Under the pieces are notes generated by a model. It was not told the origin of the DNA. It made no database searches and saw only the letters and a list, made by a program, of their open reading frames with translations. A DNA stretch of 64,000 nucleotides from an uncultured Candidatus Saccharibacteria bacterium (GTDB taxonomy: Bacteria; Patescibacteriota; Minisyncoccia; Phycocordibacterales; G965230995): the NCBI GenBank assembly GCA_965230995.1, contig OZ246398.1:73868-137867 (forward strand). The letters run 5' to 3'. Every line of letters starts with the position of its first letter. Position 1 is the stretch's first letter. A program made the position numbers and the translations under genes. Below, piece after piece: positions 6,894 to 64,000 of this stretch.

Positions 6894-6966
6894 TGCGCGT
6901 GCCAGGACTCGAACCTGGGACCACGGAGGTATAAGCTCCGCACTCTACCAACTGAGCTACACGCGC
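6894..6966 (-). tRNA. tRNA-Ile (anticodon UAU), no encoded CCA
   Basis: Reverse complement GCGCGUG-UA-GCUC-AGUUGGUA-GAGU-G-CGGAG-CUUAUAC-CUCCG-UGGUC-CCAGG-UUCGAGU-CCUGG-CACGCGC-A; canonical cloverleaf, U33, A37, anticodon UAU. Confidence 0.7.
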
Positions 6967-11670: not shown

Positions 11671-12054
11671 GGGGATGATCGGCTTCGACAAGAAGTTCAA
11701 TATATATGCGCAAAGTGAAGCTCCAGCAACTTCTTAAAAGGCTGGAAAAACATAAGTGCAGACAATTCTGCAGCAACTCCTTCTCCATATTTTGGAACAA
11801 AGGATTTTGCTTTCGCTCTAGCTTAATAGCGGGCGCGCCCAGCCACCTCTCGTCTCGTGAGATGGTCTTGGGTGTCATTTTCAGAGACTCGGTGTTTGCA
11901 TTTCTCTAGGCTAACACTTAAACAAAAGAGATCGGTATAGAATTGTTTTGTTATTTTCAAAGGTTCTATATCTAAATCATAAAAAATAACTAAACTTTGT
12001 AGACACATATACATTTCCTTCTCTGGACGGGGGTTCGATTCCCCCCATCTCCAC
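11671..12054 (+). ncRNA. ssrA: tmRNA (SsrA)
   Basis: 5' GGGGAUGAUCGGCUUCGACA and 3' GGACGGGGGUUCGAUUCCCCCCAUCUCCAC form the tRNA-like acceptor/T arm; internal tag frame ...GTKDFAFALA followed by UAA UAG (11824-11829); terminator hairpin 12061-12090. Confidence 0.85.
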
Positions 12055-12252
12055 ATTTCAAAAATCAGCCCTTTGGGGCGATTTTTGTTATGTGGAGATG
12101 AGAAAGGTCTGGGAGACCTTTTGTGGGGGAATCGAAAGGCTTTTGTGTTGATTTTAGAGTTCGAGGAATGAGAACGAATAAAATCACCAAAAGGCATACT
12201 GTTCATGTAATGAGAGATTCCCCCATCTCTATCACAAAATGAAATACCCTTA

Positions 12253-53406: not shown

Positions 53407-54594
53407 ATGAAAGCTGAATCTCTCAAATCAAGTTCAGATAACAAAAAAGAGCCTGAATTTTTCGAAGACCCAGCGGTATTTAATTGGAAAGACAGTCCTT
53501 CGATTGGTGATGCCGGACTATCAGAAACAGAAATATCAATGATAAGAAATGATCTAACACCAGAGATTGCAGAGAAATTACTCCAAAAATATGATTCCGC
53601 GATAGCACAACATAAAGAATTTGTATCATATATGATTAAAGACTTCGGTCTGCAACTTGGGCAAGATTGGCTTTTAAAAAGTGGTGCATCTAGTGCAAGA
53701 TCTATGATTCTACGCATTGTATCGAGGATAAAAAAAGAAGGCTATACAAAAGAAACAGAGAGAGAAATTGAATCCATAGATGACAGAACACTTCTTATGC
53801 TTAATATAGACAAACTCTTATCAAAATTTTCCTCAAAATATACCCCCGGAAAACAGGTCGAAACCAGTAGCGAGGCATTACATACAGATATTTTTCCAGC
53901 ATCAGATCTAACAGAAAAACAATGGGAAGAAATCTTAAGGATATGCAAAGATAATTATACAGATGATAAAATATTATTGACTTATGTAACTGAAGCCCTA
54001 AAAAGGCTACGAGAAGATGCTCCGAGACTTTCAAAGACCCGTTTTCACTTAGTAAACAGTTTTGATTTGCCAATCGCTTTTTTAAGAGTAGAAGAAAGAT
54101 CCCCGGACACGGTATTTGTTGGAACATTAAATTCCAACCGCTTATATAATGGATATAATGTTGGAATTAAACTATATGAAAATGCTATAAATGAACTAGT
54201 AAAAGAAAAAGTTGTGCTTGCCGAGGCCGACCCCACTTCAGCTATTATCCTAAAATACAGTAAATCCGGTGCGTATTTCTATGACACAAAAGAAATTTTG
54301 GACAACAACGGAAATTCTCGGACACTAATATCACTCATATGGAGAAATAGACCAGAAAGAACTAGAGAATTAACAGCGGAAGAATACTCAGACGAGTACT
54401 TAAATGAAATCAAGTCAGAAGGAGAGATATTTTCCGAGAGCTGTGAAAAAAGGGAACTCCCAACGAGACTAGTAGAATTAATAAAAGAAGGAAAAGTAAT
54501 AATATATGTCTACAAAAATTCTGGTAAATTCGAAATACTTTATCAAACATTAACACCAGAACTTAAACAAAAACTACTTCAAAAGAGAGTCTAG
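53407..54594 (+). CDS. hypothetical protein
   Basis: 395 aa ORF, no recognisable motifs. Confidence 0.35.
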   Translation: MKAESLKSSSDNKKEPEFFEDPAVFNWKDSPSIGDAGLSETEISMIRNDLTPEIAEKLLQKYDSAIAQHKEFVSYMIKDFGLQLGQDWLLKSGASSARSMILRIVSRIKKEGYTKETEREIESIDDRTLLMLNIDKLLSKFSSKYTPGKQVETSSEALHTDIFPASDLTEKQWEEILRICKDNYTDDKILLTYVTEALKRLREDAPRLSKTRFHLVNSFDLPIAFLRVEERSPDTVFVGTLNSNRLYNGYNVGIKLYENAINELVKEKVVLAEADPTSAIILKYSKSGAYFYDTKEILDNNGNSRTLISLIWRNRPERTRELTAEEYSDEYLNEIKSEGEIFSESCEKRELPTRLVELIKEGKVIIYVYKNSGKFEILYQTLTPELKQKLLQKRV

Positions 54595-55341
54595 GTCCCA
54601 TATAAGATCAAAAATTGCCGTTATAGATTCCTTGATTGATATAGAATCAATTACAACACCGACAAAAACGCCTTTTCTAAAGGTTATAAATGCAACCTTG
54701 TTTTTAAATGAATATATAACTGTATCAAGCAATTTAGTAGTTTTTAATTTTACAGTTTTAAAAGTAACCCATTCATCCTTTAAAGAACTAACGAGATCTT
54801 CGTTTTCCTTTGTTTCTGGAATAATAATTCTCTTCTTAACACCTTTGTTTCTTCTAATCTTTAAGTATTCTTCATTAATCTTTGCTATTTCCCCACTAAC
54901 CGATCGCAAGTCTACAAATTGGTAAACTATTTCATCCTCACTAACATCTAGAGTTTCATCTAAAATCTTCCATATTCCTTTTTTCCCCTCAAAGAAACGT
55001 ACATTTGGCTTTCCAGAAATCAGATTAAAATCTGAAATCATTTCTCCCATTATTGCTTCCAAAGAAGATTTGGCTGTGCTTATTTTTCTAGCCCTATCAT
55101 CTACAATTTCTTCTATATGTTTTGGGTTTTTTGCAATGTATTTTAATATTTTTGAGTCTTTTACGTTCTCTATTAGATTAAGAACTAAAAGTTGCTTAAT
55201 GTTTTTGTAAACCAAAGTCCTCTCTATCCCTGTAAGGAGAGATATCCTAGCAACCTGAATAGGTCCGTTTTTTAGAACTGCTTCATATATACGGCTCTGG
55301 TCATGTGTTAAGCCTGCGTCAACTAAATATTTTTCATACAT
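54574..55341 (-). CDS. TrmB-like transcriptional regulator (winged HTH + C-terminal domain)
   Basis: N-terminal LTHDQSRIYEAVLKNGPIQVARISLLTGIERTLVYKNIKQL; C-terminal NKVAFI motif shared with three paralogs downstream. Confidence 0.5.
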   Translation of the reverse strand: MYEKYLVDAGLTHDQSRIYEAVLKNGPIQVARISLLTGIERTLVYKNIKQLLVLNLIENVKDSKILKYIAKNPKHIEEIVDDRARKISTAKSSLEAIMGEMISDFNLISGKPNVRFFEGKKGIWKILDETLDVSEDEIVYQFVDLRSVSGEIAKINEEYLKIRRNKGVKKRIIIPETKENEDLVSSLKDEWVTFKTVKLKTTKLLDTVIYSFKNKVAFITFRKGVFVGVVIDSISIKESITAIFDLIWDLDSLLK

Positions 55342-55478
55342 ACAATTTTTTATATGATTTATATACTATAATATTTTTATCTGTTATGCAAATTTCACAA
55401 AAATATTTGAAAATTTAAATATAAAAATGGCTTTTTTTATAGTTTTTTCAAGATTTAGTGATATTTAGTTATGTTTAT

Positions 55479-55513
55479 TTGACATAATTAAACGCCTAGT
55501 GTAAAGTCATGCA
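55479..55513 (+). promoter_or_regulatory. strong sigma70-like promoter of GC-rich island 5 (TTGACA-N17-TG-TAAAGT)
   Basis: TTGACATAATTAAACGCCTAGTGTAAAGT. Confidence 0.5.
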
Positions 55514-55812
55514 CAGAAAAGCCCGACAGCAATCGGGGTGAAGCACCAAAAACATTAACTGGCGGTCTAGCGTCCAAAGCAAGGACGTAGAGTGCACAAA
55601 GCCTAAGGGAAGCAAGGCAGTGCACCCCATTAGACGGGATATGGGCGTAAGTGACGCCCAGCCTACAAGTGAACTGACAGGCACTTGTTCAGCTTCCCAT
55701 GTGAAGAACTCTTTCTGTTGTGGACGGTCCAATCCCGTTGAAACAGAAGAGACGTATTGGTAGGAGAATTACCAATGTCAAAAAAATCTCCGGGCGGTTT
55801 GCTGACTGCCCG

Positions 55813-55861
55813 TCTGTCGCAGGATGGTTCCTGCCTGATGAGCCAATAATGGCGAAACAGA
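55813..55861 (+). ncRNA. hammerhead ribozyme copy 1, type III topology (closed stems I and II, open stem III), predicted cleavage after C55818
   Basis: UCUGU-C^-GCAGG-AUGGUU-CCUGC-CUGAUGA-GCCA-AUAA-UGGC-GAAAC-AGA; all catalytic-core nucleotides present. Confidence 0.8.
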
Positions 55862-56125
55862 ATATTTACCGTCGAGGACAACTCTTAACTGCTCGGGCGC
55901 ACGTGCACGATCGTAGGTCGGACGTGAACCACGCACATAAATAGAGACAACAAGGTATTGTGCTGAAAAGGCTTCGGGTAAGTGCCAGCTGTTTGCTGAG
56001 TAACTAACGGACACCCTTAGTAGGCAACCTCGCGGAGGATAGAATCTCTACTATCCCGTTGGTGTGACCATCGACAATAGTCACAAAAATTTTTGGAGAT
56101 GGTTTGCAAACACCTTCCATCTCCA

Positions 56126-56176
56126 TTCTGTCGCAGGATGGTTCCTGCCTGATGAGCCAATAATGGCGAAACAGAA
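56126..56176 (+). ncRNA. hammerhead ribozyme copy 2, type III, predicted cleavage after C56132
   Basis: 52 nt identical to copy 1 (UCUGUCGCAGGAUGGUUCCUGCCUGAUGAGCCAAUAAUGGCGAAACAGAA); stem III UUCUGU/ACAGAA. Confidence 0.8.
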
Positions 56177-56207
56177 ACAATTCCTTTGTAACTATTGGGA
56201 GGTTTGT

Positions 56208-56417
56208 ATGTTTGATTACCGAAGAGCTGAGCGTGACGCTGACATCGAAGAGCTGTACCGGGAAGACGAGCACCTCATGGTTAGTATCACAAAGCTCGAA
56301 ACCCTCAAACCCACCCCAAAAATCAAAGAAAGAATAAGTAAAATAAAGAGAAAACGTGCAGTGATACAATCACTGCTGAGGGAGGCCAAGGAAGACAGAT
56401 ACTTCCACGGCCTGTAG
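56208..56417 (+). CDS. small hypothetical protein (69 aa) downstream of hammerhead 2
   Basis: GGGAGG RBS 7 nt before ATG; charged helical MFDYRRAERDADIEELYREDEHL...; hairpin + T-run terminator ~56420-56455. The ORF-track 56064 start reads through the ribozyme and was rejected. Confidence 0.35.
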   Translation: MFDYRRAERDADIEELYREDEHLMVSITKLETLKPTPKIKERISKIKRKRAVIQSLLREAKEDRYFHGL

Positions 56418-56488
56418 CCCTCAAACCACCCGCAGGACTTAGGTCCGGGGTGTTTTTGTATTTGTGCATTATCAATTTAACCTATATT

Positions 56489-57541
56489 CTACAAAGCAAC
56501 ACATTTGTTATTTTCTACCTTTGTTAAAGTAAGATCTCTTTCAACCACCCTATCATCACCGAATTCAACTGTTCCATATAGACCATCAATTTTTGCAGTC
56601 TTTAGATATTCTCGGACTTTTTCTGGATTATCTCCGACTTTGTCTATTGCGGTTAGAAGAATCAATGTATTTTCAAAAGCAGATGTGTAGAATGTTGAAT
56701 ATTCACCACCATGACCATCAATCCATTCAACGATTTCTTTGTTTCCTACAACAGGAAACTCGTAACTTAGTGAACCTTCGAGAGAATTGGCGGTTAAAAC
56801 CCCAGGTAGAGTACAAGAAAGATAGGAAACAAACTTTTTATTGTCTATCCCAATATTATTTAAGTCTTTATAAACAGGATTGAGTGAAGAACCATATGCA
56901 ACGACAACTAATTTATCAGGATTAAACTGTTTGATTTTTGCAGCTTCAGTAGAAAAATCCTTTGCATCTCGTGCGACTGAATAGCTCGTAACTGTAATTT
57001 TATCCTTAACTGCATTACGAATATTATTTTCCCATTGTATTCCGAACTCATCATTAGTATAAATAATTGCAAGTTTTGATACTCCTGAATTCTTCATGTA
57101 TGGACCAACACCGTTTAACGAGGTAAGAAAGTTTTGAAAGAAATTATTATAGTTTCTATTAATTCCAATAGTAGTAGCGTCAGTTACCAACACAACGTCA
57201 TTTGAATTTGTGAGCGGAGCAACTGCAGCCGAGACATTACTTAATCCAATAACAGCATAATTAACACCGCTTGCAGCAAAAAGTTTCTGAGCGACAGACA
57301 CACCCACTTTTGGATCACCAACCGTATCTTCTTCGACTAGATTAACCTTAACATTGTTTTTTTCTTCAAAATATTTAACAGCGTCCCTTGCCCCTCGAAT
57401 TGACCTTTCTCCGTATGTAGAAACAGGCCCAGACTGTGCATAAAGGGCACCAATAGTTATTTCCTGTGAATCCTTCTTGATAAAGGAAATGCCCAAAATC
57501 ACCAAGACTATTACAACCAATATAATTAATTTCTTTTTCAT
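56489..57541 (-). CDS. periplasmic binding protein type 1 (LivJ/ANF-receptor-like solute-binding protein) a
   Basis: 350 aa; N-terminal TM/signal, ITIGALYAQSGPVSTYG start typical of Leu/Ile/Val-binding family. Confidence 0.65.
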   Translation of the reverse strand: MKKKLIILVVIVLVILGISFIKKDSQEITIGALYAQSGPVSTYGERSIRGARDAVKYFEEKNNVKVNLVEEDTVGDPKVGVSVAQKLFAASGVNYAVIGLSNVSAAVAPLTNSNDVVLVTDATTIGINRNYNNFFQNFLTSLNGVGPYMKNSGVSKLAIIYTNDEFGIQWENNIRNAVKDKITVTSYSVARDAKDFSTEAAKIKQFNPDKLVVVAYGSSLNPVYKDLNNIGIDNKKFVSYLSCTLPGVLTANSLEGSLSYEFPVVGNKEIVEWIDGHGGEYSTFYTSAFENTLILLTAIDKVGDNPEKVREYLKTAKIDGLYGTVEFGDDRVVERDLTLTKVENNKCVAL

Positions 57542-57695
57542 AAAATTTATTATCTACTATGTCAATAATGGTAATACAAAAAAAGAACAAGTCAACTTGT
57601 TTAGACTTTTTTTCCTTTCTACCCTTATTTTTCAACATATATAAGTTGACGTCAGTTTTATTGACACTTTTTTGTAAAAAATATATACTAAAAAT

Positions 57696-58454
57696 ATGGA
57701 AGATTTACAGAAAACATTAATAGATTCTGGTTTAAACAAAAAAGAAGCCCAAGTTTATTTAACAGCCCTAGAGCTCGGCCGTTTTAGTATGACTGCTATT
57801 TCTGCAAAATCGAGAGTAAAGAGACCGACCTGTTATCTCATACTTGAACAATTGATAAACAAAGGACTCATAAGCAAGGCTCCACAACCTAAAAAAATGA
57901 TGTATGTTGCCGAACCACCAGAAAAAATTGAGGAGGAATTAAAGAAAAAATATATCGGTTTCAGAAAGTCCCTTCCCCTACTCAAAACCCTCGGTACAAG
58001 ACAAAAGAAAAATCCAGAAATACAATTTTTTCGTGGAGCAAAGGGTGTTGAGGCAGTATATAAGCAAGTTCTCGACGACGCCCCAAAACAAGTCTGCTCT
58101 ATTTTAAATACAGATAGACTTTTTTCTGTTACGGGAAAAGAATTTTTGGATGATTGGATAAAAAAACGAACCGCAAAGGGTATCCACATTGACTCTCTGA
58201 TGACAATTCCAAATGACAAGCAATATTTTTATGAATCTGATCCAGAGATATTGCGAAAGACAACATTTTTTAAGCCAACTACAGCTCTTGGCGGTGCTTT
58301 GTGGTTTTATAATAACAAAGTAGCTTTTGTATCGAGCAAGGAAGATGATTTTAGTTTTATTGTATCAAGCGAAGAGTTCCGAAAGACAGTCCAAGGTGTC
58401 TTTGAAGTTCTAAAAGAAAAATTGGAAAAAGAAAAGACAGAGAGTGATAAATAG
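57696..58454 (+). CDS. TrmB-like transcriptional regulator a
   Basis: GLNKKEAQVYLTALELGRFSMTAISAKSRVKRPTCYLILEQLINKGLIS wHTH; divergent from the binding protein gene. Confidence 0.5.
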   Translation: MEDLQKTLIDSGLNKKEAQVYLTALELGRFSMTAISAKSRVKRPTCYLILEQLINKGLISKAPQPKKMMYVAEPPEKIEEELKKKYIGFRKSLPLLKTLGTRQKKNPEIQFFRGAKGVEAVYKQVLDDAPKQVCSILNTDRLFSVTGKEFLDDWIKKRTAKGIHIDSLMTIPNDKQYFYESDPEILRKTTFFKPTTALGGALWFYNNKVAFVSSKEDDFSFIVSSEEFRKTVQGVFEVLKEKLEKEKTESDK

Positions 58455-58520
58455 CCAAACAAAACAACCACCCCGCAGGCCTTCGGCCTGCGGGGTGGAT
58501 TTGCTTTTTAATGATCTAGA

Positions 58521-59576
58521 TTATTGCACCAGTTTTGAAATAACTACATCACTCTGAAGTATTCTGTTAGCAAATTTTGCTCCAGCATATCCCTCTGGAA
58601 TATAATTATTTGAATTAATTTTATCTATAACACAAGATGCCGACTTGGTACCACAAGATGCCAGAGCATGCCCAGTTGCCATAAGAGATTGGTACACATT
58701 AGCCATAGCAGACACCTGATCGAAAGTAGCATTCGGATACATTTGTTTTGCCTTTTCTTTAAATGCTTCACTTAGCGGTATTTCAAAGACAGTAACCTTA
58801 TTTTTTGCCGTACCCGACAGACTATTTAAATTATTTTCTGTAGCACAATCTTGCTTGTAGCAGAATACTTTTGCATTCACGCCTAATTCAACATTTTGTT
58901 TTATTAGGTTAAAAGAATCGGCTTCATACATAATGCTGAAAATATAGTCTGGGTGAAAATCCTTATTTTGAGTCAAAATAGTACGAAAATCATTACCGGT
59001 GATATTCTCGATAATCTTAATGTTTGACGTAGGTATAACTTTTTCAAGACCATTCATACAGTACGGCACAACATCAACTAATTTTGATAATATAAGTATT
59101 CTTGTGTTTGGATTTGCGTAAGCTTTTGTAAATTTTTCGCAGACCACCTCATAACCCACAAATGTTTTAACAGTATTTGGATTGTCTTCAGCAATTTTTT
59201 GATTGAACGCACTATAGACAAGCACTTTATCTGCACTTTTTGCTATAGGAGCAATGGAACTAGCCATACCAGAAAATTCGGTATAAAGCACATCCACTTT
59301 ATCTATATCAAGCATTTTTTTTGCAACTGTTGCCGCAACAGAGACATTACTTTGACTGTCTTCAACAATAATTGACACATTATTTTTGCCATACTCATTT
59401 TCCAAATCAATTCGTGCAAGGTTTATCCCCATCTTTACTCCCTCACCCCAAAAGGCACCGAAGCCGGTTTCTGGTATAGCAGCTCCTATTGAAATCATCT
59501 TTTTATCTGACGAACCAAAGAAGATTATCAATGAAACAACGACCAGAACGACTAAACTAATGATTATTTTTTTCAT
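58521..59576 (-). CDS. periplasmic binding protein type 1 (LivJ-like) b
   Basis: 351 aa, ISIGAAIPETGFGAFWG. Confidence 0.65.
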   Translation of the reverse strand: MKKIIISLVVLVVVSLIIFFGSSDKKMISIGAAIPETGFGAFWGEGVKMGINLARIDLENEYGKNNVSIIVEDSQSNVSVAATVAKKMLDIDKVDVLYTEFSGMASSIAPIAKSADKVLVYSAFNQKIAEDNPNTVKTFVGYEVVCEKFTKAYANPNTRILILSKLVDVVPYCMNGLEKVIPTSNIKIIENITGNDFRTILTQNKDFHPDYIFSIMYEADSFNLIKQNVELGVNAKVFCYKQDCATENNLNSLSGTAKNKVTVFEIPLSEAFKEKAKQMYPNATFDQVSAMANVYQSLMATGHALASCGTKSASCVIDKINSNNYIPEGYAGAKFANRILQSDVVISKLVQ

Positions 59577-59731
59577 ATGTTTAATAAATATTATTAATAG
59601 ACAATATTATATTAATAATGGCAAATTCTGTCATAACTTAATACGCATATATCTATATATGCTGTGCTATGGCTCTATATATAGATATTAATCTCTTTAC
59701 TTTCTGTCACTTTTTGTGATAGAATTGATAG

Positions 59732-60475
59732 ATGGAAAATTTAGAACAAAATCTAGAAACTTACGGCTTGGATTCAAGGGAATCTCAGATATATGTTTTC
59801 TTATTAAAAAACAAGGATATCCCAGTTACACTAATACAAAAGGAGACCGTGCTACCCAGAGCCACTATATACAAAATTCTAGATAAACTATCACACAAGG
59901 GGCTAGTTACCAGTTGGACAAAAAATAACGTCAGACATTATTCTGCAGAGTCACCTCACATCTTAGAAAAAACAATTGAAAATAGACGACTAGCACTTAA
60001 CGAAGTCATGCCAGAATTAACAAGGCTTTTTGGTATAAATACAAAAAACCCTACATCAAAGCTATACATTGGGAAAGACGGCGTAAAAACAGCATACGAA
60101 ATAATTCTAGAAAAACTAAAACAACACAGAAAGACACGCATTTTAGTTTATACCGACGGAGGATTAGTCGAAATATTGCCAAAATTTTATACAGAGTGGA
60201 AGAAAAAAAGAGATCAAACTGGAGCATTTACAGAATTACTCACACCAGCAAAACTCAGTATCGAGAGGGGCTACCAATCGGATCCTTTTCGAGAAGTTAG
60301 ATATATGCAGGGCGACCTCCCATTCAAAGGAAGTTTCAATGTTGTCGATTCATTAGTTATTTTCTTTTCATTCAAAGAAGAAAATACTTATTCGGTCGTT
60401 ATAGACTCCCCTGTCATCGCCGAAATGATGACTGGTATATTCAAATATTTCTGGAATACGCTTGGTAATAGATAA
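59732..60475 (+). CDS. TrmB-like transcriptional regulator b
   Basis: GLDSRESQIYVFLLKNKDIPVTLIQKETVLPRATIYKILDKLSHKGLV; C-terminus YSVVIDSPVIAEMMTGIFKYFWN. Confidence 0.5.
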   Translation: MENLEQNLETYGLDSRESQIYVFLLKNKDIPVTLIQKETVLPRATIYKILDKLSHKGLVTSWTKNNVRHYSAESPHILEKTIENRRLALNEVMPELTRLFGINTKNPTSKLYIGKDGVKTAYEIILEKLKQHRKTRILVYTDGGLVEILPKFYTEWKKKRDQTGAFTELLTPAKLSIERGYQSDPFREVRYMQGDLPFKGSFNVVDSLVIFFSFKEENTYSVVIDSPVIAEMMTGIFKYFWNTLGNR

Positions 60476-60527
60476 AAGTTACAATCAGTTATTGCTACAA
60501 GCAATATTCTATGATATAATATAAAAA

Positions 60528-60838
60528 CCTGTTAGATAGACGCGGGGCGTAAGCTCTGAGGAAAGTCCGAACACAGCCAAGTATTTTACTTGGAGCAAGG
60601 TAGTGGGTAACACCCATCTGTCGAAAGACACGAGGTGCGAGCAGTGACGCCAAAGGCGAAAGCCCTAGGATTCCTTTGGGAATAATTTGATAGAAATATC
60701 AAAGTGAAACGGCTAAATCCTTATCCCTGTGCAAGGCCGTGCCGGTCGCAAGATCGGAGTGCCGCTTGAGCCGGCAAGTAATTGCCGGCCTAGATTAATG
60801 GCTATCCACGACAGAATTCGGCTTACAGACAGGCATAT
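60528..60838 (+). ncRNA. rnpB: RNase P RNA (bacterial type A-like, reduced)
   Basis: P4 strands GAGGAAAGUCCGAAC (60558-) and ACAGAAUUCGGCUUAC (60811-60826); GGUAAC loop (GUGGGUAACACCCAU), GUGAAACGG, GGUGCGAGCAGUGACGCC; TATAAT at 60515-60520; P1 CCUGU/ACAGG; terminator 60841-60868. Confidence 0.8.
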
Positions 60839-60876
60839 GAAAACCGCAAGCGTTCCGCTTGCGGTTTTCTCTTTGA

Positions 60877-61995
60877 TTACAGATCAACAATCTTTCCTTT
60901 TACTATTTCTCGAAACACTGGCTTTCTATCAACTTCACAATCCTCGTTAAATGTAAGCGTTCCTGTTACCGCAGAATAATTTTCTAATTGGCTTATATAC
61001 TCTCCGACTTTCTTTGGATTATCACCAACGGCTTTTATGGCATCAAGTAATATCACGATTGGATCATAAGTAGCAACGACAAATAGAGGTGCTTCGCTTT
61101 TATATTTTTCCTGATATTTAGCTTTAAAATCTCTTGCTATATCAGAATCGCTACTCTGTATGCTCGACTGATATTCGTAATCAACAAATTTTGCATTACC
61201 AAGTAATGCTTTGTCATTCAGAGATGGATTGTTTACTGTGTAGTAATCAGTAATTATTGGCAAAACAATACCGAGTTCTCTCATTTGGTTTAACATAGGT
61301 TCAATTGTATTGGTCACTTGTGCAATTACAATGGCATCATTTTCACCCTGTCTTGCTTTTATCTTTGTGAGATTAGTTCTATAGTCACCAACAGAATTTT
61401 GTGTGTTATAAAATTCTGAAATCAATATATCCCCCTTAAATTCCTTTTTTAATTCCTCATATATTCCCCTACCATATTCATTATCTGGTAGTAGCGTTGC
61501 AATTTTTTGATATTTATTCTTTTCAAGTAGTTCAGAATATGCTGGACCAAAGTTTTTTGCAGTAAGCGCTATCCTGCATGACATATTATCTCCATCAAAA
61601 TATGCCGGCGTCGTCGGTATTCCAGTAATAATCAAATTTCCATCCTTTAATACAGTTTCTCTCAGAGAAGCAACAACAGGACTTCCGTCAGTCACAATAT
61701 ATTTAACACCGCGAAATTTCAGCTCGTTGTATGAATTAAGTGCAATTTTAGGATCATAACCTGAATCTGAAATGATTATTTCTACCGGTCTCCCATCTAT
61801 ACCGCCCTCGGCATTAATCTTTTCTTGTGCCAAATACACGGCTCTTTTCTGTGTTTCTCCCAATGCCGATGCTGGACCAGTCAAAAACAACTGAACACCA
61901 ATTTTTATTGATTCTTTATTGTCGTTTTTCAAAAACACAAAACTCACAACAACAATAACCAGAATCACTCCGAGCAGTATTTTTAATATTTTCAT
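60877..61995 (-). CDS. periplasmic binding protein type 1 (LivJ-like) c
   Basis: 372 aa, IKIGVQLFLTGPASALG. Confidence 0.65.
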   Translation of the reverse strand: MKILKILLGVILVIVVVSFVFLKNDNKESIKIGVQLFLTGPASALGETQKRAVYLAQEKINAEGGIDGRPVEIIISDSGYDPKIALNSYNELKFRGVKYIVTDGSPVVASLRETVLKDGNLIITGIPTTPAYFDGDNMSCRIALTAKNFGPAYSELLEKNKYQKIATLLPDNEYGRGIYEELKKEFKGDILISEFYNTQNSVGDYRTNLTKIKARQGENDAIVIAQVTNTIEPMLNQMRELGIVLPIITDYYTVNNPSLNDKALLGNAKFVDYEYQSSIQSSDSDIARDFKAKYQEKYKSEAPLFVVATYDPIVILLDAIKAVGDNPKKVGEYISQLENYSAVTGTLTFNEDCEVDRKPVFREIVKGKIVDL

Positions 61996-62150
61996 ATTAA
62001 TAAATCATTTATATTAATGGTCATATTATAGGTGTTTCATTGATTGACGTCATAAAATTTTACTCACAAATCACATTTTGTATATATACCCTTTATTTAA
62101 AAGGTAAAAAAGCCATTTACTTTCGTCATAAATTATGACACTATACTAGT

Positions 62151-62891
62151 ATGGATAAAATAGAGCAGAGTTTAATAAAGTATGGGCTAAGTCAAAGAGA
62201 GACCCGTGTTTATTTATTTTTGTTAAAAAATAAAGACATCGACGTAACAACCATAGGCAAATCCCTATCCTACCCTCGTGCAACTGTTTATAAAACATTA
62301 GACGATCTGAAGACTAAAAACCTTGTTTCTAGCTGGGTTAAAAACGGGATTAGACATTATTATGCTGAAAATCCAAAAACAATAGAAAAAGATGCTCAAG
62401 AAAAAATGGAGATGATCAAAGAAATAATTCCTGACCTGAGCCTTTTTTTTGGCACAGTGACAAAAAATCCAAAGATTTTTCTATACGAAGGTACAAACGG
62501 GATTAAAAATGCTTATGACATGTTGCTTGAAAAAATAAGCACAAAGAAAAATTTACGAATGTATGTCTACACCGACGGCGAACTGATTCCAAAATTACCT
62601 AGATTTTTCAAGGAATGGCGAAAAAAGAGACTTGTCGCGCCCGCAACATCACAAATAATCATACCGGAATCATTTTTGTCGTCTTCTGATTATAAAAGCG
62701 ACGCGCACAGAGAAACCCGTGTAATAAAAGGCGAGTCACCAATGGTAGGTACATTTAACATCTGTGATTCTTTGGTTTTATTTTTTTCGTATAAAGAAGG
62801 AAATATGTATTCAATTGTCATTGACTCACCTGTCATCGCCGAAATGATGACCGGAATATTCAAATATGTATGGAATAGTTTAGAGAAATAA
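62151..62891 (+). CDS. TrmB-like transcriptional regulator c
   Basis: GLSQRETRVYLFLLKNKDIDVTTIGKSLSYPRATVYKTLDDLKTKNLV; C-terminus nearly identical to regulator b. Confidence 0.5.
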   Translation: MDKIEQSLIKYGLSQRETRVYLFLLKNKDIDVTTIGKSLSYPRATVYKTLDDLKTKNLVSSWVKNGIRHYYAENPKTIEKDAQEKMEMIKEIIPDLSLFFGTVTKNPKIFLYEGTNGIKNAYDMLLEKISTKKNLRMYVYTDGELIPKLPRFFKEWRKKRLVAPATSQIIIPESFLSSSDYKSDAHRETRVIKGESPMVGTFNICDSLVLFFSYKEGNMYSIVIDSPVIAEMMTGIFKYVWNSLEK

Positions 62892-62949
62892 GAACAAAGA
62901 AAACCGCAAGCGTTCCGCTTGCGGTTTTCTTTTTGCGACAAATAATGGT

Positions 62950-64000
62950 TTATTCCAATACTTTCCACTTTCCTCCTTCTGCTTCAATCATCAACACTTC
63001 TCTGTTTGATCTTCCCTTTTCATCAAAGGTAACTAGTCCGGCAACCCCGTCATATTCTATATTCTCTACTGTCTCTGAAAAACAATCGTTATCCAGCGTA
63101 TCGTTTTTGAAACATTTTTCAAAACCAGCTTTTATAATATACATATCATCGTATGGATAGACGATAACTGGTGAGATTCCCTCTCCAAAACGTGCTTTAT
63201 ATTTTGCAATAAACTGATTTGTTTTTTCTGAATTACCAACATCGGCAAAACCATACCAAGTGCTCACAGTATTATTTTCCGAGAACAATTGCCTCATTTC
63301 TGCAGTATCGGCTACAGGGAGTGTTGGTGCAGTATATTGGAATGTTTGAGTTCCAATATGACCCATATCATTTAGCTGTTTAATGAGCAAATGTGCGTGC
63401 CTCCATGCACAAGCAATCAAAACATCGTCGTCATTTAAATCTAATTTTGTAATGCTCGTTCGCAAGTCTGTTGCATTTGATTGAAAATATTCTTGTTTTT
63501 CTACATTTATTGCAGAACCTTTTAACACTTTCTTTGCTGAATCGACATACAACTGGCAAACATCACTTTGTTCTGAAATTATTTTTACAGGACGTGAATT
63601 TCCAACACGGTTTATGACTTCGTTTGCAATTGCCACACCACTATGTTCAGTATCAAAGCTGTCTCTAAAAAATATCTCGCTTTGTTCGGCTATCCTGCCA
63701 TCGTTTGCGGAATAGAACATCGGCTTTTTTGCATCCATTACTGTTTGGCTGATTGCCTGAGTAAGATTGGTTCTACCAGAGAAAATCACATCTGCTCCAG
63801 ATAAAATGAGTTTCTGCGCAACAGATGCTGCAACTTTCGGATCACCCTGATTGTCTTCTGATATAATTTCTACTCTCTTTCCAGCAATACCTCCATTTTT
63901 GTTTATTTCTTCTGCCGCTAAAATCAGAGCATTTGTATCTGACTGCCCCAAGAAAGCAAGGCTTCCGCTCAGCGCTGAGTTATTTCCAATCTTAATTACA
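62950..64000 (-). CDS. periplasmic binding protein type 1 (LivJ-like) d, N-terminus beyond window end
   Basis: Reading frame stays open upstream of the TTG picked by the ORF track: ...VIKIGNNSALSGSLAFLGQSD continues the typical binding-protein N-terminus to position 64000. Confidence 0.6.
   Translation of the reverse strand, partial: VIKIGNNSALSGSLAFLGQSDTNALILAAEEINKNGGIAGKRVEIISEDNQGDPKVAASVAQKLILSGADVIFSGRTNLTQAISQTVMDAKKPMFYSANDGRIAEQSEIFFRDSFDTEHSGVAIANEVINRVGNSRPVKIISEQSDVCQLYVDSAKKVLKGSAINVEKQEYFQSNATDLRTSITKLDLNDDDVLIACAWRHAHLLIKQLNDMGHIGTQTFQYTAPTLPVADTAEMRQLFSENNTVSTWYGFADVGNSEKTNQFIAKYKARFGEGISPVIVYPYDDMYIIKAGFEKCFKNDTLDNDCFSETVENIEYDGVAGLVTFDEKGRSNREVLMIEAEGGKWKVLE

Follow-up and report, generated by a model that had tools for sequence, protein, structure and literature searches.

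A probable Liv-type importer with several binding proteins and a TrmB-type regulator beside each in a Patescibacterial genome

We describe an array of solute-binding protein (SBP) genes of the HAAT/LivJ type and divergent TrmB-type regulator genes, found at one end of a 64,000-nt stretch (the window) of contig OZ246398.1, positions 73,868 to 137,867, from an uncultured Candidatus Saccharibacteria bacterium. The array is probably a modular, multi-receptor Liv-type importer in which each SBP gene has one local TrmB-type regulator. The initial annotation, made from the window alone, had taken the repeated pair for a family of ligand-sensing modules rather than ordinary transporter operons. The repeated SBP-plus-regulator module stands, as the divergent pair is conserved and its regulators are true TrmB proteins, but its opposition to transporter operons does not, as a livHMGF-like gene set lies 3.9 kb past the window edge. 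We call the binding proteins S1 to S5 and the TrmB-type regulators R0, Ra, Rb, Rc, Rd and Re; handles such as L020 denote contigs and related loci.

Within the window, an open reading frame (ORF) map and Pfam agree with the four LivJ-type SBP genes and four TrmB-like genes first called there:

54574–55341, minus strand: R0, TrmB-family regulator (255 aa; PF01978, E 2.3e-8)
56489–57541, minus strand: S1, HAAT/LivJ-type SBP (350 aa; PF13458, E 2.9e-42)
57696–58454, plus strand: Ra, TrmB-family regulator, divergent from S1 (252 aa; PF01978, E 3.4e-13)
58521–59576, minus strand: S2, HAAT-type SBP (351 aa; PF13458, E 3.9e-25)
59732–60475, plus strand: Rb, TrmB-family regulator, divergent from S2 (247 aa; PF01978, E 3.7e-11)
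60877–61995, minus strand: S3, HAAT-type SBP (372 aa; PF13458, E 1.9e-35)
62151–62891, plus strand: Rc, TrmB-family regulator, divergent from S3 (246 aa; PF01978, E 1e-11)
62950 to beyond 64000, minus strand: S4, HAAT-type SBP cut at the window end (full gene 62950–64113, 387 aa; PF13458)

The three divergent pairs reported at the outset are separated by spacers of 154 bp (S1–Ra), 155 bp (S2–Rb) and 155 bp (S3–Rc), and S4 likewise has a divergent TrmB gene, Rd, just past the window end on L020. The array had also been described as an amplification; in the sense of recent duplication this is wrong, because the paralogues are anciently diverged. The SBPs are mutually 21–29% identical and the six regulators 20–28% identical pairwise (R0 against Ra to Re, 23–28%), with the exception of Rb and Rc. 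These two share 51% protein identity and 81% DNA identity over 112 nt at their 3′ ends, and their C-termini are indeed near-identical, Rb ending in YSVVIDSPVIAEMMTGIFKY and Rc in YSIVIDSPVIAEMMTGIFKY.

Looser motifs, Pfam and BLAST were used to look for ATP-binding cassette (ABC) genes, as the strict LSGGQ motif misses signatures of the LivG/F type. Neither an ABC ATPase nor a Liv permease was found within the 64-kb window, in agreement with the earlier statement that none lies between the SBP genes. A search with full-length S4 recovered Logan contig L020 (21.7 kb), the reverse complement of which matches window positions 62901–64000 at 1,100 of 1,100 nt. Rc and S4 are both recorded on one NCBI contig of 742,714 bp; a separate contig that encodes Rc is 2,088 bp long and has both ends at copies of a repeated 31-nt terminator. 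With the window numbering carried past 64000 along L020, the following genes adjoin the array:

64115–64864 (L020 9250–9999), minus strand: S-adenosylmethionine-dependent methyltransferase, just upstream of S4 with a 1-nt gap
64991–65722, plus strand: Rd, TrmB-family regulator (PF01978 above gathering score)
65797–66891, minus strand: S5, HAAT-type SBP (PF13458)
67014–67784, plus strand: Re, TrmB-family regulator (PF01978 above gathering score)
67918–68634, minus strand: livF-like ABC_tran ATPase, 41% identity to E. coli LivF
68636–69382, minus strand: livG-like ABC_tran ATPase, 38% identity to E. coli LivG
between the livG-like and livM-like genes: a 60-aa ORF
69670–70467 (L020 3647–4444), minus strand: a 265-aa gene between the livM-like and livG-like genes
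70561–71427, minus strand: livM-like BPD_transp_2 permease, 35% identity to E. coli LivM
71430–72290, minus strand: livH-like BPD_transp_2 permease, 33% identity to E. coli LivH

Pfam matches to the permeases (BPD_transp_2, E 1e-43 and 2e-46) and ATPases (ABC_tran, E 1e-24 and 7e-35) are strong, and the core, which begins 3.9 kb past the window and spans 67918–72290, has the gene order of E. coli livHMGF. ABC transporter genes just outside the window were one of the objections that the initial annotation had itself foreseen; two ABC_tran and two BPD_transp_2 genes are there, and because they adjoin the array, the view of these modules as sensing instead of transporting is not supported. LivHM-type permeases and LivGF-type ATPases that appear cognate thus sit beside the SBP genes, their coupling being read from gene adjacency. 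A window edge can evidently produce a false ‘orphan’ reading of an SBP array. The 265-aa gene, for which no Pfam family or PHROG match was found, splits the otherwise canonical livHMGF order. It is the methyltransferase gene, and not S4 itself, that is directly divergent from Rd; it is co-directional, and predicted to be co-transcribed, with S4.

Among the binding proteins, S1 to S4 match PF13458 (Peripla_BP_6) at E values from 4e-25 to 3e-42, and the closest Protein Data Bank (PDB) entries to S3 are 4GNR (E 1e-20) and LivJ 1Z15 (E 5e-13). By sequence inspection, each of the five has a hydrophobic anchor at its N-terminus and none has a lipobox cysteine, features consistent with membrane tethering in a cell that has no outer membrane. 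When S1 to S5 are aligned by MAFFT with LivJ and LivK of E. coli, the LivJ ligand-contact positions, which we take to be Y18, S79, T102, Y150, Y202 and E226, vary among the five SBPs and none of these retains the full set; the ligands of the five proteins probably differ from one another.

That the regulators might be unrelated helix-turn-helix proteins was a second objection raised at the outset. Profile, structure and recognition residue instead identify them as true TrmB proteins. PF01978 (TrmB) matches R0, Ra, Rb and Rc (E 2e-8 to 3e-13) as well as Rd and Re, all above the gathering score. An AlphaFold2 model of Rc, with a mean predicted local distance difference test (pLDDT) score of 87.8, consists of a winged helix (residues 1–72), a long helix (76–100) and an alpha/beta domain (105–243). 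In Foldseek searches, the full chain of this model matches TrmBL2 5BOX (E 1e-13) and TrmB 3QPH (E 2e-10), and its C-terminal domain matches the TrmB sugar-binding domain 2F5T (E 9e-5) and phospholipase D (PLD) 7E0M (E 1e-4). As modelled, the regulators thus have a TrmBL2-like architecture: a winged helix-turn-helix, a long coiled-coil or dimerization helix and a PLD-like C-terminal domain. Searched alone with phmmer against the PDB, Rc gave no TrmB match, and a profile built from the regulator alignment matched residues 6–96 of TrmB 3QPH at E 1.2e-7. All 17 sequences compared have Tyr47 (Rc numbering), which aligns with Y50 of 3QPH, the DNA-recognition residue of TrmB (PMC4158304). The regulators are 243–256 aa long and stop after the PLD-like domain; as they end where TrmBL2 ends, they are without the C-terminal sugar-binding subdomain of ~70–90 aa, and the Pfam scan reported no PF11495 match for them. 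The family defined by this C-terminal domain is small and uniform: among 1.84 billion cluster representatives it numbers 147 at E ≤ 1e-3, and nearly all of these are 245–260 aa long.

The pair recurs across the group. A scan of GTDB species representatives, which do not include the window's own genome, with an alignment of Rb/Rc-type regulators gave 15 confident relatives, all 15 from metagenome-assembled genomes of Patescibacteria (the Candidate Phyla Radiation, CPR) and at most 42% identical. In these 15 loci, two contigs recovered by exact protein look-up and L020, we counted 43 TrmB-like genes and 49 LivJ-type SBP genes, which form 33 divergent pairs with a median gap of ~150 bp. Pairs are grouped in arrays of five in L006, at least four in L009 and at least seven in L017. 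The recJ–HIT neighbourhood of the pairs in L002 and L003 is the same as in the window. Orthologues keep company as well: the S1 orthologue in L002 (66% identical) is paired with an Ra orthologue (66%), S2 orthologues (43–50% identical) lie beside Rb-type regulators in L003, L005, L009, L011, L012 and L013, and metagenome contigs supply further pairs, including Rc and S3 orthologues at 70% and 77% identity in L022. Parts of a Liv importer also lie beside related arrays, with LivM-like proteins 63–65% identical (L006, L014) and LivG-like proteins 53–54% identical (L009, L028) to those of this genome. Across all pairs, the divergence of regulators correlates with that of SBPs (Mantel r 0.60, reached by none of 2,000 permutations).

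A shared sequence element upstream of the regulator genes is a candidate operator. The palindrome has the consensus TGTTGTCnn-N5-nnGACA, and its core was scored as GTC-N9-GAC within 70 nt upstream of the regulator ATG. Of the 33 paired regulators, 21 have it, where 0.09 would be expected and none of 2,000 shuffles gave more than 2. Of 60 copies of the motif in ~298 kb, 25 fall within divergent spacers, which make up 2.1% of that sequence. Common descent of the loci inflates both counts, but paralogues of different classes have the motif. The candidate operators of the window and the promoter-like sites on the SBP side are as follows:

57648–57667, no strand: Ra-proximal operator-like palindrome, GACGTCAG-TTTTA-TTGACAC
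59705–59721, no strand: Rb-proximal operator-like palindrome, TGTCAC-TTTTT-GTGATA
62124–62140, no strand: Rc-proximal operator-like palindrome, CGTCAT-AAATT-ATGACA, preceding the Rc start codon by 11 nt
57589–57608, no strand: S1 distal palindrome, AAGTC-N10-GACTT, overlapping the −35 hexamer TTGACT (57595–57590) of an S1 promoter-like site
59606–59645, minus strand: S2 promoter-like site ATGACA-17-TATAAT (11/12) and distal half-site, with TGTCA on the −35
62025–62063, minus strand: S3 promoter-like site ATGACG-17-TATAAT (10/12) and distal site, with GACGTCAT-AAAAT-TTTAC on the −35

The proximal sites of Ra and Rb lie on the regulators' own promoter-like sequences. The predicted Ra promoter, TTGACA-17-TATACT (57661–57689), has as its −35 the right arm of the Ra-proximal palindrome, which is kept in the L002 orthologue, and the Rb-proximal palindrome sits between the two hexamers of the predicted Rb promoter, TTTACT-18-TAGAAT (59696–59725). 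Beyond the window, a GTC-N9-GAC site precedes the Rd start codon by 5 nt, and Re has a degenerate version. The inner bases of the arms differ by paralogue class (CC/GT, GG/CT, AC/GT, AG/TT and AT/AT). On the SBP side, the S2 distal site (59627–59645) and the S3 distal site (62046–62063) are each 76 bp from the corresponding proximal site, that of Rb or Rc, and paired sites 76–77 bp apart are also present in L005, L012 and L018. The predicted promoters of Ra, Rb, S2, S3 and rnpB are the top-scoring sigma70-like sites in the region; as the number of promoter-like matches overall is not above shuffles, only their positions carry weight. The −10 hexamers of the regulators end 3–10 nt before the ATG without a Shine–Dalgarno sequence (59696–59734, 62114–62153 and orthologous sites in L003–L017). 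Because the predicted −10 abuts the start codon in this way, the regulator mRNAs are suggested to be leaderless or near-leaderless.

At each module boundary, where two genes converge, there is a strong symmetric hairpin with runs of A and T on its flanks:

58468–58498, no strand: bidirectional intrinsic terminator between Ra and S2, 14-pair stem with 12 GC pairs, called on each strand
60840–60870, no strand: bidirectional terminator copy 1, between rnpB and S3
62900–62930, no strand: bidirectional terminator copy 2, between Rc and S4

Copies 1 and 2 are the same 31-nt hairpin, AAAACCGCAAGCGTTCCGCTTGCGGTTTTCT, and the exact repeat noticed in the initial annotation is real, with coordinates shifted by 1–2 nt from those first given. 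No further copy with six or fewer mismatches occurs in the 64 kb. Similar hairpins are found in L020 between Rd and S5 and between Re and livF.

From these elements a mechanism can be proposed. Most likely, five anciently diverged, membrane-anchored SBPs would bring different small ligands to a single translocator encoded by livH-livM-x-livG-livF, much as E. coli LivJ and LivK share LivHMGF. Each SBP gene would be its own transcription unit, bounded by terminators, with its promoter in the ~155-bp spacer that it has in common with the divergent regulator gene. The regulator is predicted to bind two palindromic operators ~76 bp apart as a dimer or a dimer of dimers. Of these operators, one is placed in or at the promoter of the regulator gene itself, and the second overlaps the −35 on the SBP side. 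While bound, the regulator would keep both genes repressed, and an effector, probably the ligand that is imported or one of its metabolites, would release it; a dimer of dimers may span the two operators, as it does in TrmBL2. Orthogonality of the modules would come from the inner operator bases, which vary from one paralogue to the next. The most parsimonious interpretation, which we infer, is repression through two operators that an intracellular effector relieves.

Several observations weigh against this proposal. Related loci share ancestry, so the count of 21 in 33 overstates the number of independent events. The distal sites are imperfect: that of S1 is spaced N10, not N9, and is hence weaker evidence, and those of S2 and S3 are half-degenerate. 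The sugar-binding subdomain that the regulators do not have holds most of the ligand contacts in TrmB, and TrmBL2, their closest structural relative, has no known effector (PMC4158304), so ligand sensing is unsupported by homology. Once orthology is removed, the within-locus correlation between regulators and SBPs falls to r = 0.15; a strict co-evolution of the two, which we also considered, is weakly supported by this value. Partners are also swapped, with regulators 74–76% identical found beside SBPs only 23–27% identical, which argues against a strict match between the ligand of a regulator and that of its SBP. Finally, the SBP pockets may not be those of amino acid carriers. The contacts of LivJ with the alpha-amino and carboxylate groups, presumably S79, T102, Y202 and E226, form a complete set in none of the five SBPs, and E226 is kept in 0 of 5, with columns that are uncertain at 15–23% identity. 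As no SBP keeps all the LivJ contacts, the ligands may be something other than amino acids.

The same architecture could work with the opposite sign, the TrmB-like proteins activating the SBP promoters or acting both ways, as TrmBL1/Tgr does, which represses or activates depending on the position of its site (PMC4158304). The distal sites are centred ~38–41 nt upstream of the predicted SBP start sites, a position that class II activators also use. We consider this unlikely, as the S2 and S3 promoters are near consensus (11/12 and 10/12, each with a perfect TATAAT) and should not need activation, and as the proximal sites, in the spacer or on the −35 of the regulator promoters, occupy classic repressor positions.

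The regulators could instead answer another signal, whether general nutritional, from host contact or none at all as for TrmBL2, with the pairing mainly a matter of cassette-like inheritance. Partner swapping, the low within-locus correlation and the TrmBL2-like architecture without a sugar-binding subdomain would all fit, as would family members that face genes other than those of SBPs. R0 is one such member, and in two related loci a TrmB-like regulator is divergent from a protein of ~440–465 aa whose N-terminus reads MKIVLINPAYPYGK, so the family has other local targets:

L012 4483–5799, minus strand: ~440–465-aa protein divergent from a TrmB-like regulator
L018 3467–4864, minus strand: the same type of protein, likewise divergent from a TrmB-like regulator

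One common signal is hard to reconcile, however, with six paralogues 20–28% identical that have paralogue-specific operator bases; the sites are specific palindromes, unlike the non-specific binding reported for TrmBL2, and orthologous pairs are often inherited together, as for Ra/S1 (66%/66%) and Rc/S3 (70%/77%). This leaves the reading quite improbable. That the pairs are stand-alone ligand-sensing modules, with the SBPs as sensors and not as transporter parts, is least credible of all: no ABC gene lies between the SBP genes inside the window, no Liv gene turns up within 10 kb of many related arrays and SBPs are known to feed signalling proteins in some bacteria (PMC8050422), but a complete livHMGF-like set adjoins this array, Liv parts recur at related ones, and extracytoplasmic, anchored SBPs would have no evident signal path to soluble TrmB proteins that carry no membrane or receiver domain.

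The multi-receptor importer can be taken a step further, to an extension that we hold to be conceivable if rather doubtful. The units that run from terminator through SBP gene, divergent spacer and TrmB gene to the next terminator may be cassettes open to exchange, with recombination in the spacers and terminators that they have in similar form, so that ultra-small CPR cells could re-tool the substrate range of one Liv importer. The TrmBL2-sized regulators and their paralogue-specific operators would then be orthogonal, metabolite-responsive switches that account for much of the transcriptional regulation in the cell and report which compounds from the host are at hand.

Other features of the window lie within or beside the array. 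The initial annotation placed rnpB and two hammerhead ribozymes inside it, and covariance matches to Rfam bear this out; none reaches the gathering threshold, and all were found by E value:

55510–56465, plus strand: GC-rich hammerhead island between R0 and S1 (~950 nt; GC ~50% against ~33%)
55811–55863, plus strand: hammerhead type III copy 1 (RF00008; 43.1 bits, E 4e-7)
56125–56177, plus strand: hammerhead type III copy 2 (RF00008; 47.7 bits, E 2e-8)
56208–56417, plus strand: island ORF of 69 aa with a strong Shine–Dalgarno sequence, GGGAGG-N5-ATG
60524–60841, plus strand: rnpB, reduced bacterial class A RNase P RNA (RF00010)

At 99.3 bits, rnpB falls 0.7 below its gathering score of 100 (E 3.4e-30; model positions 1–367 with several internal deletions). 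It is preceded by a promoter-like site at 60492–60520, TTGCTA-17-TATAAT with an extended TG, and together with that promoter fills the 364 nt from the Rb stop codon to the terminator, a distance that is only 8 nt for Rc. Either rnpB was inserted into a module's terminator or it captured one.

The hammerhead island is not part of the transporter system. Both hammerheads span the full model below the gathering score of 48.5 and have the CUGAUGA…GAAA core and three helices, a sequence match from which cleavage is predicted. Their 50-nt cores are identical and 314 nt apart, and their flanks are unrelated; a 314-nt tandem repeat is ruled out, as the match is confined to the cores. The second hammerhead lies ~30 nt upstream of the 69-aa ORF, which has no PHROG match, and the island ends in a terminator-like hairpin and folds well beyond shuffles (z = −6.65). 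The hammerhead core is absent from all 39 related loci. The island looks like an acquired, structured, self-cleaving transcription unit. R0, which has no SBP partner, faces it with its upstream region, and in the gap between them (55342–55510) a promoter-like site, TTGACA-17-TAAAGT (55479–55507, plus strand), is divergent from R0 and reads into the island. Given this arrangement, a TrmB-type regulator, R0, may control the ribozyme-bearing unit.

The remaining features are the following:

53407–54594, plus strand: ORF of 395 aa with no family assignment (no Pfam family, no PHROG match)
11671–12056, plus strand: tmRNA (150 bits), a housekeeping RNA elsewhere in the window
6894–6966 and 81–170, both minus strand: two tRNAs, ordinary housekeeping RNAs elsewhere in the window

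The 395-aa ORF and R0 are convergent, with an overlap of 21 nt at the R0 3′ end.

CPR bacteria have genomes below 1 Mb, few recognizable regulators and a heavy dependence on host metabolites. In this 743-kb genome, ~18 kb goes to six TrmB-type regulators and five SBPs around one importer, and the module recurs across the group. If the proposal is true, it offers a concrete and testable account of import choice in CPR cells and would define an operator for the TrmB-like proteins of bacteria for the first time. It would also yield small repressor/operator pairs that are naturally orthogonal and, through screens of the SBPs and the C-terminal domains of the regulators, a route to ligand discovery for uncultured episymbionts.

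Both ingredients of the system are known separately: a TrmB-type regulator at the promoter of an ABC binding-protein gene, and several SBPs on one Liv core. We could not find a description of bacterial, TrmBL2-sized regulators each divergent with a HAAT SBP gene in terminator-bounded modules across Patescibacteria with a palindromic operator; a literature search gave nothing on TrmB in Patescibacteria/CPR and nothing relevant on SBP expansion in Patescibacteria. The nearest precedent for the regulation is TrmB of the trehalose/maltose operon of Thermococcus litoralis and Pyrococcus furiosus, which represses malE, the binding-protein gene of an ABC operon, through a palindrome (PMC4158304). The two are alike in having a winged helix-turn-helix regulator within an ABC-importer cluster, a palindrome at an SBP promoter and a Tyr50-type recognition residue, the last two predicted here from sequence. 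That system is archaeal, belongs to the CUT1 sugar class and has one regulator per operon, whereas the one described here is from CPR bacteria, belongs to the HAAT/Liv class and has regulators of ~250 aa without a sugar subdomain, one per SBP gene in repeated divergent modules.

TrmBL1/Tgr binds the Thermococcales glycolytic motif (TGM), TATCAC-N5-GTGATA (PMC4158304). The candidate operators have the same geometry, with 6-nt inverted arms and a 5-nt spacer, and the Rb site agrees with the TGM at 11 of 12 arm positions. Here, by contrast, the consensus is TTGTCnn-N5-nnGACA with paralogue-specific inner bases, and control would be local and paired in cis rather than that of the global TGM regulon. 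Among structures matched over the full length, TrmBL2 (PDB 5BOX, 5BPD) comes closest; its length and set of domains are the same, at a sequence identity of 16–18%. TrmBL2 is abundant in chromatin and binds DNA without sequence specificity (PMC4158304), whereas here specific, conserved palindromes lie at the promoters of the paired genes.

For transport, the closest known system is LivJ/LivK with LivHMGF of E. coli (HAAT, TC 3.A.1.4), which also has several SBPs beside one core of the same gene order, at 33–41% identity to the core found here. In contrast to that system, the array has five or more SBPs that are 21–29% identical to one another, with divergent pocket residues and a promoter, regulator and terminator of their own. 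It also differs in the predicted membrane anchors of its SBPs, which are periplasmic in E. coli, in having TrmB-type in place of Lrp regulation and in the 265-aa gene that splits its core.

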